Assembly: GCF_055900595.2 (NCBI RefSeq) | Contig: NZ_CM148325.1 | Strand: one strand, 5' to 3' | DNA length: 64,000 nt | Shown: in pieces, positions 2,548-24,959 of the stretch | Position numbering within the stretch: the stretch's first letter is position 1 | Layout: every line of letters begins with the position of its first letter | Made by a program: the position numbers and the translations under genes | Notes under the pieces: generated by a model | The model's database searches: none | What the model saw: only the letters and a program-made list of their open reading frames with translations | What the model was told of the DNA's origin: nothing

Positions 2548-4035
2548 TTAAATCACCTCTTCGATAACCCACACGCTGACGCTGCCGCCGTTGCAAAAGA
2601 AGGTCGCTTCGCCGTTTTCGTCGGTTACTACGCTCTCTTGCCGGTTCCCCAGAAAATCACGCCAGGTTTTATTGCCGTAATTCTCTCCCAGATGAATGGT
2701 TTTTTCGCCATCATCCCCGTTCGACATGACCACCACGCAGCCGGGATATTCGTCGGTGCCACTGCGGCTAAAGGCAATGCAGTTCGGATGGTCGAAAAAT
2801 AACGTCTGTACACCGTGGGCGAAACGCTGACGGGCGAGAATTAACTCATCAAGCTGTTCGATTATTGGCATATCTATTGGATAGGTTTGCCCGTCACCAC
2901 CGACATCTTCGTAATGCGCACCGTAGAGGTCCGGATAGAACACCGAAGGAACGCCATTTTCCCGCAACAAAATTAGAGCATACGCCAGCGGTTTAAACCA
3001 CGGTTCGACCGGCGCTTCGAGGGCTTGCAACGGTTGGGTGTCGTGATTGGCAACGAGCGTCACGGCGTGGAAAGGATCGGCTTCCACTAATGTACCCGTG
3101 AAAATCTGCGTCATGTCGTAGTCGCGCCCCATGCGCGATGCTTCATGGAATTTCATCTGCAGCGGCGCATCAAACAGCATGGTTTTGCCTTCCACCTGAT
3201 CAATATACGTTTGCAGCTTATCAACTTCATGCGACCAGTATTCCGCCACAATAAACAGCGGCTTTGGCGCAACTTCTTGTACGTGTTCGATCCACTCTTT
3301 ATAAAACCATGCCGGTATATGTTTGACCGCATCAAGACGAAAACCGTCGCATTGCGTTTGTTCCATCACCCAGCGCGCCCAGTATTTAATCTCTTCCGTC
3401 ACGGCATGATTGCGGAAATCGATATTCTCGCCCATCAGATAATCGAAATTACCTAATTCATCATCAACCTGATCGTTCCAGCCTTCGCCGGTGTAGTCGT
3501 TAACAATTTTAAATATGCCATCTTCATCAGGGTTTTCGATATGGTCGATACCGCTAAAACATTTGAAATCCCAGATAAACTGCGAGTATTGCCCGGCACG
3601 AGCGGGGAAGGTGTAACGCGTCCAGCCTTCACACTCAATGATTTCTTCGTCAATTTGCGTACGGTCATCAGCATTTACACGCTGCACGCGAATAGCTTCT
3701 TTTTCATCCGCGCCCATTTTGTGGTTGACTACCACGTCCAACAGCACCGCAATGTCATTACGTTTCAGGGCGTCAATGGCGGCCAGCAGTTGTGCTTTAT
3801 CGCCATATTTAGTAGGGATGCTGCCTTTCTGATCAAACTCACCTAAATCAAATAAATCATAGGAGTCGTAGCCGACCGAATACCCGCCCGATGCGCCTTT
3901 ATAGGCGGGCGGCAACCAGACCATATTGATACCAATATCATTAAAACCGTCGGCGCGCTCGGCCAGTTCAGGCCAGAGCTTACCGCCTTCCGGGTAATAC
4001 CAGTGAAAACATTGTAACAGCGTGGGATTACGCAT
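2548..4035 (-). CDS. amyA: Cytoplasmic alpha-amylase AmyA
   Basis: Track ORF 495 aa; matches K-12 AmyA length and sequence as recalled. Confidence 0.95.
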
Positions 4036-22040: not shown

Positions 22041-22056
22041 TGTGATTTGTATCACA
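22041..22056 (+). promoter_or_regulatory. CRP binding site upstream of azuC
   Basis: TGTGA-TTTGTA-TCACA, perfect match to both CRP half-sites; about 85 nt upstream of the azuC ATG. Confidence 0.7.
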
Positions 22057-22138
22057 TAAAGATTGATTTTTGTGATGGTTGTCATATTATAAGCGCAAAG
22101 ACAATAACACCTGTATAACAAATGGTCGGAGTGCCGCG

Positions 22139-22225
22139 ATGAAACTGCGCAAAATCCTGAAAAGTATGTTCAATAACTATTGCAAGACGTTCAAAGACGT
22201 ACCGCCAGGCAATATGTTCCGATAA
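22139..22225 (+). CDS. azuC: Small membrane-associated protein AzuC (28 aa); mRNA also acts as the dual-function sRNA AzuCR
   Basis: ATG at 22139 translates MKLRKILKSMFNNYCKTFKDVPPGNMFR then TAA; below the ORF-track size cutoff; followed by an intrinsic terminator. Confidence 0.8.
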   Translation: MKLRKILKSMFNNYCKTFKDVPPGNMFR

Positions 22226-22669: not shown

Positions 22670-23173
22670 TCAATGCAGCTGGTGTGACACGACATTCAGA
22701 ACATGTTGGTCGGTCTGCACAGGGCACATACCCGCAAGTTTCGCACTGCGCACTTCATCAAGAATGGTTTGCAGCAACAGACCATCATGCTGCTGTTCTT
22801 TTTCCAGATCGCGCAGGAAATTGACGGTTGAATCATCATTCAGTTCTTTCGCTTCATCGGCTAACTGTGCCAACGTACTAGAACGTTGCTCGTATTCTTC
22901 CATCGTTTTTTGGAACAGTTCTTCCAGAGAGTTCAGTTTTTCACCGGGAACATCAATGGCTTTAACGATGGGGGTAGCGCCGACACTCTTCATAAAGTTA
23001 AACATGCGCATCATTTGGGTCACATTACTCTGTGCCTGGGCGCGAAGGAAAGTGGCGGTGCCGTTCAGACTCTGTTCAGAACACCAGTTACTCAGGTGAA
23101 GGTAGAGATTGGATGCGTAAAACTCGCGGTTCATTTGAGAGTTGAGTTTGAGAAGCATTCCAGCGGTTGCCAT
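22670..23173 (-). CDS. ftnB: Ferritin-like protein FtnB (YecI)
   Basis: Track ORF 167 aa; ferritin-like fold, paralogue of ftnA; matches K-12 FtnB. Confidence 0.9.
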
Positions 23174-23969
23174 ACCTAATATCCTTATATCCAGAAGTGG
23201 AGAGGTGCAAGATAAATCAAAACACCATAATTACTGTTTGCAGAATAATTCCTTTCTGCCGGTCCGAAATGTGATCGTGGAGTCAATTCTGACGATGATC
23301 TGAAATAAGAATAACGTCTGAACGGGTATAAGAAAATGCTTAAATCATCAAGTTTATATATTTTTACATTTCATTGATGAAATCAATGTAACTGCAATGA
23401 ATTTTAATGATAGCGCTTTTTGTATCTTGTTGATATTAATCAATGAATTTGAATTCATGATGAAGTGATGATTTTATAAAACGTTTTTTCATTTTTGCGA
23501 GATGGCTCTCATTATACGTGTTCTGTTAATTAATGAGCACAGTGATAATTAATGGCGAAATGAATGACGTACATTTTCCACATCTTTGAGTTGCGGTTAT
23601 TACACCATTTCAAAAACTCAACGCCAGGTAATGCGGCCTATTGACTGGTTAAAAAGAAGACATCCCGCATGGGTACCAAAGACAACAAGGATTTCCAGGC
23701 TAATCTTATGGATTAATCTGCTGTGCATTCGACAATTTGTCTGACAAATTGGCTTTCCCTTATGTCTTTTCCCGCTAAATTTATGCACGTTCTCACTGTA
23801 ATTCTGCGATGTGATATTGCTCTCCTATGGAGAATTAATTTCTCGCTAAAACTATGTCAACACGGTCACTTATCTTTTAGTTAAAAGGTAATGCTTTGTT
23901 TTCCGATTAATTTAACGAATGTCATTCGTTTTTGCCCTACACAAAACGACACTAAAGCTGGAGAGAACC

Positions 23970-24959
23970 ATGCACAAATTTACTAAAGCCCTGGCAGCCA
24001 TTGGTCTGGCAGCCGTTATGTCACAATCCGCTATGGCGGAGAACCTGAAGCTCGGTTTTCTGGTGAAGCAACCGGAAGAGCCGTGGTTCCAGACCGAATG
24101 GAAGTTTGCCGATAAAGCCGGGAAGGATTTAGGGTTTGAGGTTATTAAGATTGCCGTGCCGGATGGCGAAAAAACATTGAACGCGATCGACAGCCTGGCT
24201 GCCAGTGGCGCAAAAGGTTTCGTTATTTGTACTCCGGACCCCAAACTCGGCTCTGCCATCGTCGCGAAAGCGCGTGGCTACGATATGAAAGTCATTGCCG
24301 TGGATGACCAGTTTGTTAACGCCAAAGGTAAGCCAATGGATACCGTTCCGCTGGTGATGATGGCGGCGACTAAAATTGGCGAACGTCAGGGCCAGGAACT
24401 GTATAAAGAGATGCAGAAACGTGGCTGGGATGTCAAAGAAAGCGCGGTGATGGCGATTACCGCCAACGAACTGGATACCGCCCGCCGCCGTACTACGGGA
24501 TCTATGGATGCGCTGAAAGCGGCCGGATTCCCGGAAAAACAAATTTATCAGGTACCTACCAAATCTAACGACATCCCGGGGGCATTTGACGCTGCCAACT
24601 CAATGCTGGTTCAACATCCGGAAGTTAAACATTGGCTGATCGTCGGTATGAACGACAGCACCGTGCTGGGCGGCGTACGCGCGACGGAAGGTCAGGGCTT
24701 TAAAGCGGCCGATATCATCGGCATTGGCATTAACGGTGTGGATGCGGTGAGCGAACTGTCTAAAGCACAGGCAACCGGCTTCTACGGTTCCCTGCTGCCA
24801 AGCCCGGACGTACATGGCTATAAATCCAGCGAAATGCTTTACAACTGGGTAGCAAAAGACGTTGAACCGCCAAAATTTACCGAAGTTACCGACGTGGTAC
24901 TGATCACGCGTGACAACTTTAAAGAAGAACTGGAGAAAAAAGGTTTAGGCGGTAAGTAA
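23970..24959 (+). CDS. araF: L-arabinose ABC transporter periplasmic binding protein AraF
   Basis: Track ORF 23919..24959 trimmed to ATG 23970 (MHKFTKALAAIGLAAVMSQSAMA signal peptide) with GGAGAG SD; matches K-12 AraF (329 aa). Confidence 0.95.
   Translation: MHKFTKALAAIGLAAVMSQSAMAENLKLGFLVKQPEEPWFQTEWKFADKAGKDLGFEVIKIAVPDGEKTLNAIDSLAASGAKGFVICTPDPKLGSAIVAKARGYDMKVIAVDDQFVNAKGKPMDTVPLVMMAATKIGERQGQELYKEMQKRGWDVKESAVMAITANELDTARRRTTGSMDALKAAGFPEKQIYQVPTKSNDIPGAFDAANSMLVQHPEVKHWLIVGMNDSTVLGGVRATEGQGFKAADIIGIGINGVDAVSELSKAQATGFYGSLLPSPDVHGYKSSEMLYNWVAKDVEPPKFTEVTDVVLITRDNFKEELEKKGLGGK

Follow-up and report, generated by a model that had tools for sequence, protein, structure and literature searches.

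The long AT-rich gap between ftnB and araF in Escherichia coli is probably a regulatory spacer with no gene of its own

The classical promoter of araFGH in E. coli (Hendrickson et al. 1990, 1992; Johnson and Schleif 2000) has two upstream direct-repeat AraC-type sites, with a CRP-type site placed between AraC and RNA polymerase; its -10 is weak and a -35 is missing. The locus analysed here is the same one and does not appear to differ from that description in kind. The leader and promoters of ftnB, which faces the other way, were described by Pourciau et al. 2019 (PMC6686035), with four GGA motifs in a leader of about 127-128 nt. "Silent" FNR sites masked by H-NS were reported by Myers et al. 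2013 (PMC3688515), and one of the sites of that paper lies between ftnB and araF. In the same neighbourhood, the yecJ–yecR gap contains azuC/azuR (IsrB), a dual-function small RNA with a visible ORF and an example of a short gene hidden in an AT-rich gap.

The window is the whole stretch of 64,000 nucleotides that was analysed. The gap occupies positions 23174-23969 (796 bp, MG1655 1986129-1986924) between two genes:
22670-23173, minus strand: ftnB, the left neighbour.
From 23970, plus strand: araF, the right neighbour.

The MG1655 RefSeq annotation places no feature in 1986129-1986924. The gap has a G+C content of 35.1%, against 50.1% for the window, and was found in 5,409 of 5,426 complete genomes of E. 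coli with 97.5-100% identity. Its longest closed open reading frame on all strands has 56 aa. In 1000 shuffles of the gap the mean longest ORF was also 56 aa and only 35% reached at least 60 aa; therefore the absence of an ORF of that size is what chance predicts. A previous sequence-only reading had described an AT-rich gap of this length with no ORF of at least 60 aa and none with a convincing Shine-Dalgarno (SD) sequence. Both descriptions are borne out, with exact coordinates and a best anti-SD duplex of -3.8 kcal/mol for any ORF of the gap. Its statement that the ORFs have only 13-23 codons is incorrect, as there are ATG ORFs of 40, 37, 36, 34 and 31 codons and GTG/TTG ORFs of up to 52-56.

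The gap consists of three parts: the ftnB side (23174 to about 23383), an AT-rich middle (about 23384-23683) and the araFGH side (23684-23969). A blastn comparison with 38 related loci found similarity limited to 23178/23232 to about 23370 and to 23684-23969. Taking 4-fold sites as the neutral benchmark (identity 0.62-0.70 among Escherichia), the identities are 0.83-0.99 in the flanks and 0.26-0.62 in the middle. Conserved control DNA of two known transcription units makes up about 490 of the 796 bp, and about 300 bp remain. We consider it highly probable that the gap is a purely regulatory non-coding spacer, formed by two ancestral intergenic regions joined end to end, with no gene of its own. 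The ftnB–araF gap is ordinary and largely already known. The result is mainly a negative one: a long AT-rich gap of this kind looks as if it hides a gene, yet its length is fully accounted for.

The left 210 bp or so, 23174 to about 23383, are conserved well beyond the neutral level and carry the following features:
23174-23301, minus strand: ftnB 5' leader of 128 nt, starting at the A at 23301 (published TSS-seq).
23181-23194, minus strand: ftnB SD AAGGAT (23181-23186) and upstream CUGGAU (23189-23194), both GGA motifs, read from the sequence.
23241-23260, minus strand: leader hairpin GCAGAA-AGGAAUUA-UUCUGC with GGA in the loop, a CsrA-type site (centroid fold).
23308-23313, minus strand: probable sigma-70 -10, TATTCT, at -12 to -7 from 23301, assigned by its position relative to the published start.
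23331-23336, minus strand: poor -35 of ftnB, TTTTCT.
23329-23355, minus strand: sigma-E-like promoter AAACTT-16 nt-TCTTA, overlapping the sigma-70 promoter region; read from the sequence, exact placement putative.
23353-23367, minus strand: CpxR-type box GTAAAAATATATAAA, centred at about -59 from the ftnB start (pattern match, 1 mismatch).

The ftnB start is TSS-seq entry 1984821(+), which has 124 reads and a UTR of 128 nt (PMC3415461); TSS-seq positions were converted with a U00096.2-to-.3 offset of +1976, which was checked against the ftnB coordinates. The only sigma-70 ChIP-seq peak in the gap lies at window position 23302, at the ftnB promoter (PMC3688515), and a leader of 127 nt was used in the CsrA study (PMC6686035). 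The leader displays 93-99% identity among Escherichia, compared with 62-70% at neutral sites, and AAGGATAT at the SD and CUGGAU is kept across genera. The hairpin at 23241-23260 is the only consensus helix across 17 sequences, with its 6 pairs mostly retained, and a further GGA is found at 23262-23267. A published Term-seq 3' end at K-12 1986856 corresponds to window position 23242, at the base of this hairpin. CsrA footprints on the leader and translational repression by CsrA have been reported (PMC6686035). The ftnB leader is of the CsrA-regulated type: a conserved hairpin carries one GGA in its loop, and another overlaps the SD. To the account of Pourciau et al. 2019 the present analysis adds that the hairpin and the CpxR-type box are conserved across genera, and that the Term-seq 3' end falls at the hairpin base.

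In the promoter, the G.TAT..T columns of the -10 are invariant in 17 sequences, TTTTCTTA of the sigma-E-like promoter is invariant across genera, and ATGTAAAAAnnATAAAC of the CpxR-type box is kept across genera. The gene is listed in the Cpx regulon (PMC9600279, PMC7657598, PMC6686035) and was reported to be driven by Cpx and sigma-E, with a sigma-E-dependent promoter cited (PMC6686035). The CpxR-type box and the overlapping sigma-70 and sigma-E-type promoters would launch the 128-nt leader, on which CsrA, bound to GGA motifs in the hairpin loop and at the SD, represses translation of ftnB.

The araFGH side (23684-23969, about 285 bp) is conserved across genera. Its promoter region contains:
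23686-23723, minus strand: distal AraC site in inverted orientation to araF, with two half-sites of 17 bp spaced 21 bp apart (pattern match).
23712, plus strand: minor araF-strand TSS with a 258-nt leader, inside the distal AraC site (TSS-seq, low confidence).
23761-23798, minus strand: proximal AraC site, half-sites TAGCGGGAAAAGACATA (23761-23777) and CAGTGAGAACGTGCATA (23782-23798).
23810-23825, plus strand: CRP-type site TGTGATATTGCTCTCC (pattern match, 2 mismatches).
23845-23859, plus strand: weak -10 G-C-TAAAAC at 23845-23852 (TAAAAC at 23847-23852) and probable arabinose-induced araF start at about 23857-23859.

The distal half-sites, TAGCCTGGAAATCCTTG (23686-23702) and CAGCAGATTAATCCATA (23707-23723), match TAGC-N7-TCCATA and are the sole pair of matches in a 21-bp register on one strand in the 64 kb. 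The site is nearly invariant in 15 species, and we take it to be the classical araFG2. For the proximal site, the first half-site matches the pattern with 2 mismatches and the second was read from the sequence in the 21-bp register. Both are nearly invariant across genera, and this site is presumably the classical araFG1. In the CRP-type site, TGTGAT and GCTCTC are invariant in 15 species. An invariant run, TATGGAGAATTAATTTC.CGCTAAAAC, ends at the putative araF -10 and start. The induced start would lie at about 23857-23859, as judged from the CRP spacing and from earlier work, reportedly that of Hendrickson et al. 1992. If it is 23859, the centre of the CRP-type site (23817.5) would be at -41.5, a class II position. 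A second araF promoter at GGTAAT (23886-23891) was considered and rejected, since the CRP and AraC sites would fall at implausible distances from it.

The sole published TSS on the araF strand, entry 1984410(-), has just 3 reads and corresponds to window position 23712, not to 23857-23859 (PMC3415461). Both of the divergent promoter regions that the sequence-only reading expected in the gap can be placed. The dependence on AraC and CRP that it assumed for them applies to araFGH, where an araF reporter is fully off in an araC mutant (PMC8489885), but does not extend to ftnB, for which Cpx and sigma-E are the reported drivers (PMC6686035). The AraC motif scan that it had proposed locates two direct-repeat sites of AraC type, conserved across genera. 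AraC on the two inverted direct-repeat sites, with CRP next to RNA polymerase, would drive araFGH from a promoter with a weak -10 and no -35.

Downstream of the putative start lies the leader of araF:
23857-23969, plus strand: araF 5' leader of about 112 nt, counted from the probable start.
23886-23901, plus strand: conserved leader block GGTAATGCyTTGTTTT (cross-genus conservation).
23901-23908, plus strand: possible second complementarity of 8 nt, UCCGAUUA, to UAAUCGGA in the third unstructured region of Spot 42 (Escherichia only).
23933-23941, plus strand: predicted Spot 42 pairing site UGCCCUACA, complementary to Spot 42 nt 1-8, GUAGGGUA (duplex computation).
23958-23965, plus strand: araF SD CTGGAGAG (cross-genus conservation).

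The leader exhibits 84-91% identity among Escherichia and no unusual fold (z = +0.24). It would bear, within its approximately 112 nt, a site complementary to the Spot 42 5' end; the duplex of Spot 42 nt 1-20 with the leader has an energy of -16.8 kcal/mol, and CCCTACA of the predicted site is invariant in 15 species. The site was judged by region-by-region complementarity and conservation only, the energy of the whole-molecule duplex being uninformative (equalled by 33% of shuffles). These data suggest that the araF leader is of the Spot 42 target type, with a predicted pairing register. Spot 42 is reported to repress the high-affinity arabinose transporter, as the title of Chen and Gottesman 2017 states. 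The second complementarity at 23901-23908, which is not conserved outside Escherichia, is a speculative addition. A possible upstream ORF in the leader, with its ATG at 23891, was discarded, as the ATG varies across genera.

The remaining part of the gap was characterized by comparison with other Escherichia and with more distant genera:
23384-23683, no strand: AT-rich, fast-evolving middle, no constraint seen, at the place of a DJ-1/PfpI gene of relatives.

Compared with other Escherichia, 23384-23530 has an identity of 0.56-0.62 and 23561-23644 one of 0.26-0.35, the value at 4-fold sites being 0.62-0.70. Over 23561-23644 E. coli is wholly unlike the other Escherichia species, and this segment is not orthologous within the genus. 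Similarity to other genera was not found past about 23440-23490. Separately, a 30-bp island at 23531-23560 has an identity of 0.70-0.77, slightly above the neutral 0.62-0.70.

In 24 loci, from Salmonella, Citrobacter, Leclercia and others, an ORF of 185 aa lies between ftnB and araF and ends about 316 bp before araF. Its product is a DJ-1/PfpI protein (Pfam E = 9e-30). The gene is intact in Salmonella arizonae and diarizonae, and four other lineages have it as a pseudogene. When six-frame translations were searched with a protein profile, remnants were detected in 4 lineages and in none of the 7 Escherichia (E > 4). In Escherichia, tblastn with 24 proteins, an nhmmer DNA profile of the last 160 nt of the gene and collinear alignment were likewise negative for a remnant. 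A match of 14-15 nt at 23578-23592 ('HIFEL' versus 'HIFDF'), found at one gene position in several species, scored z <=3.2 and was taken as chance.

Since relatives carry the DJ-1/PfpI gene at this place, the middle is read as a gene-loss scar; since it has no detectable similarity to the intact gene, it is classed as a site of gene loss and not as a pseudogene. Synteny and the outgroups suggest that the ancestor shared with Salmonella and Citrobacter carried the gene, that the loss occurred in Escherichia, and that the roughly 300 bp are what remains, drifting at or faster than the neutral rate. On this reading the length of the gap results from the loss, in Escherichia, of a gene that is still present in Salmonella and Citrobacter and decays independently in other lineages.

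The middle might instead be foreign AT-rich DNA, acquired horizontally by the ancestor of Escherichia as an insertion or in place of the DJ-1/PfpI gene. Its G+C content of 34% and its H-NS binding are typical of acquired DNA, there is no detectable homology to the gene replaced, and the complete difference between E. coli and other Escherichia over 23561-23644 suggests indel turnover. However, the promoter regions on both sides are just as rich in AT (G+C 23.5% in the ftnB promoter), and 23404-23492 aligns weakly but collinearly with intergenic DNA next to ftnB in Citrobacter (z up to 4), which suggests that at least the left part is native. The middle is single-copy in E. coli; repeats, IS ends and tRNA are absent nearby. 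Its similarity does not extend to true plasmids, the only matches being seven E. coli records of 0.39 to 4.9 Mb that contain the locus at full length. A foreign origin is thus improbable, and a mobile or repeated element was rejected on the same grounds of single copy and absence from true plasmids.

The middle also contains a regulatory motif:
23430-23443, no strand: perfect FNR consensus TTGATATTAATCAA, centred at -135.5 from the ftnB start (exact TTGAT-N4-ATCAA match).

It is the only exact consensus match in the 64 kb. Table S6 of the study on silent FNR sites lists it as TTGATTAATATCAA (araF/ftnB); FNR ChIP-seq shows no peak at it, and H-NS is enriched there in ChIP-chip (PMC3688515). A coordinate search of the supplement of that paper found no boundaries of the H-NS region. 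The box fits the class of H-NS-masked "silent" sites: it has the consensus, the wild-type FNR peak is absent, and it is H-NS-enriched. To the report of Myers et al. 2013 it can be added that the DNA around the box is unconstrained and occupies the place of a lost gene, and that the right half of the box is specific to E. coli and the closest clade, being absent from other Escherichia species. The AT-rich middle, reportedly covered by H-NS in vivo, would thus hold a consensus FNR box acquired in the E. coli lineage and unoccupied in the wild type.

An earlier study, as far as it is related in PMC3212961, had FNR bound unusually far upstream of E. coli ftnB, which conflicts with the "silent site" result (PMC3688515). 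The same paper reports E. coli ftnB as strongly low-O2-dependent and Salmonella ftnB as Fnr-activated and H-NS-repressed (PMC3212961). Together with the perfect consensus, unique in 64 kb, and the published H-NS enrichment over it, these reports could mean that the middle is a lineage-specific switch of ftnB, in which H-NS nucleates there and silences the ftnB promoter, and FNR at -135.5 displaces H-NS anaerobically. Against such a switch, wild-type FNR has no ChIP-seq peak, and neither gene name was found in the other supplementary tables examined (PMC3688515). The sequence around the box evolves neutrally, and the right half-site is missing in the other Escherichia. No positional equivalent of the box was found in Salmonella, so the regulation of Salmonella ftnB cannot use it. 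Sigma-70 occupies the ftnB promoter with and without O2, showing that the promoter is not fully silenced. Such a switch is therefore a possible but rather unlikely function of the middle.

The ftnA system is a precedent on the side of the switch. Fe-Fur is reported to relieve H-NS silencing at ftnA (Nandal et al. 2010). Both genes are of the ferritin family and lie in the same neighbourhood, each with a long AT-rich H-NS-bound upstream region and a far-upstream regulator site. Unlike ftnA, ftnB has no Fur box above chance, and its candidate antagonist is FNR, whose in vivo binding is disputed. The best match in the gap to the Fur box GATAATGATAATCATTATC is 12/19, which is reached by 88% of composition-matched shuffles. 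This agrees with the statement that Salmonella ftnB has no predicted Fur site (PMC3212961). A perfect FNR box can arise in unconstrained, H-NS-covered DNA, a caution for motif-based regulon prediction.

The sequence-only reading had also suggested that a gap of this length could accommodate a small RNA or small protein that is not annotated. Several points speak for a gene in the middle, perhaps a young and E. coli-specific one. About 300 bp are without an assigned function and include several ATG ORFs of 16-37 codons, the island at 23531-23560 is slightly better conserved than neutral sequence, and the adjacent gap contains a real dual-function RNA, azuC/azuR, so such genes do occur nearby. 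The published transcript maps, moreover, cover a handful of laboratory conditions, with arabinose, envelope stress and an hns mutant not among them, so that a transcript specific to such conditions could have been missed.

In those maps, however, the transcripts of the gap are the expected ones. The TSS map contains the ftnB start and the single 3-read start at 23712 on the araF strand, with none in the middle (PMC3415461). This is essentially the outcome, just the two expected mRNA 5' ends and no additional transcript, that the sequence-only reading had named as refuting its suggestion, the araF-strand end being only the 3-read one. The sigma-70 peak at the ftnB promoter has no counterpart in the middle, and the published Term-seq 3' ends in the gap are confined to the ftnB leader. 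A consensus promoter scan yielded 0 promoters. The single terminator-like match in the gap is the TCTCC-TAT-GGAGA palindrome within the araF promoter and is not a real terminator. The gap has no Rfam match at E up to 1, and the middle has no RNA fold signal on either strand (z +0.93 and -0.54).

The coding evidence is similar. No ORF of 23384-23683 is intact in other Escherichia species beyond the closest clade, in which two short minus-strand ATG ORFs (17 and 10 codons) are kept. The best SD duplex, at -3.8 kcal/mol, does not single out any ORF as led by an SD. Identity at or below the neutral level, with 23561-23644 non-orthologous within the genus, also argues against a gene, and none of the 12 E. 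coli records listed annotates a feature in the middle. A text search of the supplement of a Ribo-RET study found no coordinate of the gap, a weak observation, as the coordinate notation of that supplement is unconfirmed. By comparison, azuC/azuR has its own TSS, Term-seq 3' ends, CRP boxes and annotation, and the ftnB–araF middle has none of these. A hidden small RNA or protein gene is very improbable. Two long leaders, the distal AraC site and, where the gene was lost, about 300 bp of sequence free of constraint account better for the extra length.

Within the regulatory spacer, one further element lies between the two AraC sites:
23735-23749, no strand: perfect palindrome ATTTGTCTGACAAAT of the GntR-family operator type (sequence match).

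Neither this palindrome nor the leader block at 23886-23901 is known to belong to the classical araFGH description. No other exact TTGTCNGACAA occurs in the window. In 23 of 41 loci a single copy of the palindrome is present at the corresponding position; from Escherichia to Leclercia and Silvania its arms do not vary and its central base is free to change. The same 11-mer is a footprinted operator of a Pseudomonas GntR-family regulator. It is conceivable, if unlikely, that the palindrome is the operator of a GntR-family regulator acting on araFGH besides AraC and CRP; the high-affinity arabinose transporter would then have a third transcriptional input.

The ftnB–araF interval is an ordinary regulatory interval, largely described already. 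The window is E. coli chromosome, and the gap between ftnB (22670-23173, minus strand) and araF (starting at 23970, plus strand) is exactly 23174-23969, equivalent to MG1655 1986129-1986924 (K-12 coordinate = 2010098 minus window coordinate). Its G+C content is 35.1% versus 50.1% for the window, and it is found in 5,409 of 5,426 complete E. coli genomes with 97.5-100% identity. RefSeq places no feature between araF and ftnB in MG1655, nor in a strain that matches the window at 100% identity. The sequence-only reading described a 796-bp gap with no ORF of 60 aa or more, and both its coordinates and the longest ORF, 56 aa, agree. Shuffled copies of the interval have the same mean longest ORF, and 65% of them also lack an ORF of at least 60 aa; the ORF-free state is therefore uninformative. 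The ORFs had been put at only 13-23 codons, which is too short, as ATG ORFs reach 40 and GTG/TTG ORFs 56 codons; none has a usable Shine-Dalgarno sequence, as that reading had judged.

A sensitive blastn comparison of the E. coli gap with other genera gives two matching blocks only, 23178/23232 to ~23370 and 23684-23969. Within the genus, identity at the 4-fold degenerate sites of ftnB and araF between E. coli and non-coli Escherichia was the neutral benchmark.

Identity of E. coli segments to non-coli Escherichia
Neutral benchmark (4-fold sites): 0.62-0.70
ftnB leader: 0.93-0.99
ftnB promoter: 0.84-0.89
23384-23530: 0.56-0.62
23561-23644: 0.26-0.35
araF control region: 0.83-0.86
araF leader: 0.84-0.89

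The middle of the interval (about 23384-23683) evolves at or below neutral identity, and from these comparisons its ~300 bp appear unconstrained. Identity in 23561-23644 is at the level of unrelated sequence, and this segment is therefore non-orthologous within Escherichia. Weak collinear similarity of 23404-23492 to the ftnB-proximal intergenic DNA of Citrobacter (z up to 4) suggests that this part still descends from the old DNA next to ftnB. Two TAATTAATG repeats, spaced by about 19 bp, lie in a 30-bp island at 23531-23560; the island's slightly higher identity among Escherichia, 0.70-0.77 versus the neutral 0.62-0.70, is not significant at 30 bp.

The relatives, sampled as 38 fetched loci encoding FtnB relatives, indicate what once occupied the middle. 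The gap is 789-800 bp in all Escherichia species among these loci, and 1.0-1.4 kb in Citrobacter, Leclercia, Lelliottia, Enterobacter, Silvania and Huaxiibacter. Most of these longer gaps contain an ORF of 185 aa that runs on the araF strand and ends ~316 bp before araF; its product belongs to the DJ-1/PfpI family (Pfam E = 9e-30).

L009-L039 (fetched loci), e.g. L014:2954-3511, minus strand: DJ-1/PfpI gene between ftnB and araF, many Enterobacteriaceae

In Salmonella enterica subsp. arizonae and diarizonae, the gene is intact beside ftnB and is followed by araF fragments only and then otsBA. The gene order in these Salmonella and the other relatives therefore gives an ancestral order of ftnB, a divergent DJ-1/PfpI gene and araF. 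The middle gene, judged from these sequences, was evidently lost in Escherichia, and the ~300 bp of drifting DNA would be what this loss left behind. No trace of a remnant was detectable in any of 7 Escherichia sequences. The gene is frameshifted or partial, and was pseudogenised independently, in Leclercia adecarboxylata (L037) and three Citrobacter lineages (L015, L039, L008). In S. diarizonae, parts of the araFGH control region have survived the loss of araF, the palindrome described below among them (L010:2635-2827); in S. arizonae an araF fragment lies within a 136-aa ORF, with otsBA directly after (L013:2536-2946).

The suggestion that the gap leaves room for an unannotated small RNA or small protein found no support in any test run. 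Published transcript maps, which cover few conditions, record neither a transcription start nor a Term-seq 3′ end in the middle, and the gap has no second sigma-70 ChIP-seq peak. The interval gave no promoter-like site in a consensus scan and no Rfam match. The middle shows no RNA fold signal (z-scores +0.93 and -0.54) and has no paralogous or mobile copy, and none of its ORFs is conserved in other species of Escherichia or has a Shine-Dalgarno sequence ahead of it. A text search of the supplement of the Ribo-RET study found no coordinate of the interval. The single terminator-like match in the interval, within the araF promoter, is spurious. The gap is unusually long because it holds two long leaders together with a distal AraC site and the drifting DNA.

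On the ftnB side, the published map places the start at U00096.2 1984821, window 23301 (124 reads, 128-nt leader; PMC3415461), and the sigma-70 ChIP-seq peak labelled araF/ftnB converts to window 23302 (PMC3688515). The first three of the following elements fall in columns conserved across genera; the hairpin is the sole consensus helix across 17 sequences.

-12 to -7 from the ftnB start, minus strand: TATTCT
Upstream of the ftnB start, minus strand: sigma-E-like promoter AAACTT-16-TCTTA
23353-23367, minus strand: CpxR-type box GTAAAAATATATAAA, a pattern match
23241-23260, minus strand: 6-bp hairpin with GGA in the loop

Regulation of ftnB by Cpx is listed in PMC9600279, PMC7657598 and PMC6686035, the last of which also cites its sigma-E promoter. 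The leader has four GGA motifs, three of which are footprinted by CsrA, which represses ftnB translation (PMC6686035). Published Term-seq shows only two 3′ ends in the whole gap, both with low counts and both in this leader (minus strand): 23242, at the base of the GGA-loop hairpin, and 23199. The end at 23242, at its low read count, implies a 5′ fragment of ~60 nt ending in a CsrA-type site. Salmonella and several Citrobacter, not Escherichia, carry a GC-rich, hairpin-like leader insertion of ~34 nt (columns 329-366 of the cross-genus alignment A2, e.g. L010 ~3925-3960).

Farther upstream, in the middle of the interval, 23430-23443 matches the FNR consensus exactly, as no other site in the 64 kb does; this box is centred at -135.5 from the ftnB start. 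Exactly this site (TTGATTAATATCAA, araF/ftnB) is among the predicted sites of Myers et al. (PMC3688515) that lack an FNR ChIP-seq peak and are enriched for H-NS by ChIP-chip. According to a passage in PMC3212961, an earlier study found FNR binding at an unusually distant upstream position at ftnB in E. coli. The right half-site is limited to E. coli and its closest clade; Salmonella has no positional equivalent of the box. No Fur box above chance was found in the interval.

On the araF side, with the AraC motif scan proposed by the sequence-only reading, two pairs of AraC-type half-sites could be placed, and they match near-invariant blocks of a 15-species alignment.

23686-23723, minus strand: distal AraC-type half-site pair, 21-bp register, near-invariant in 15 species
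23735-23749, between the two AraC sites: perfect palindrome ATTTGTCTGACAAAT, GntR-family operator type
23761-23798, minus strand: second AraC-type half-site pair, near-invariant in 15 species
23810-23825, plus strand: CRP-type site, a pattern match in a block near-invariant in 15 species
23845-23852, plus strand: G-C-TAAAAC, the end of a run that is invariant in the 15-species alignment

All four AraC-type half-sites are inverted relative to araBAD-type sites. This AraC/CRP layout agrees with the classical description of araFG1, araFG2 and CRP. With CRP at -41.5, the spacing geometry and that description would place the induced araF start at ~23857-23859, with a leader of ~112 nt. The araF leader contains CCCTACA (23935-23941), invariant in 15 of 15 species and complementary to the very start of Spot 42. 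Chen and Gottesman reportedly found in 2017 that Spot 42 represses the high-affinity arabinose transporter, and the predicted pairing is consistent with this repression. The leader block GGTAATGCyTTGTTTT (23886-23901), conserved across genera, has no complementarity to Spot 42. Expression of an araF reporter is fully araC-dependent (PMC8489885). The only araF-strand start recorded in the published map is 23712 (+), with 3 reads (PMC3415461). It falls inside the distal AraC site, implies a 258-nt leader and fits a weak promoter, AAGACA-16-TAATCT.

In Pseudomonas, the 11-mer core of the palindrome, TTGTCNGACAA, is an operator on which a GntR-family regulator leaves a footprint. This core occurs once in the window, and 23 of 41 loci have it once at the corresponding position; the arms of the palindrome are invariant and the centre variable in the 15-species alignment. 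To our knowledge, the palindrome has no assigned E. coli protein.

In the next gap, Rfam gives only weak, sub-threshold matches to unrelated families at azuC. The known dual-function RNA AzuCR has its 28-aa azuC ORF (MKLRKILKSMFNNYCKTFKDVPPGNMFR) at 22139-22225 (+). Closely upstream are two CRP boxes (22041-22056 and 22071-22086), one perfect, TGTGATTTGTATCACA, and the other near consensus.
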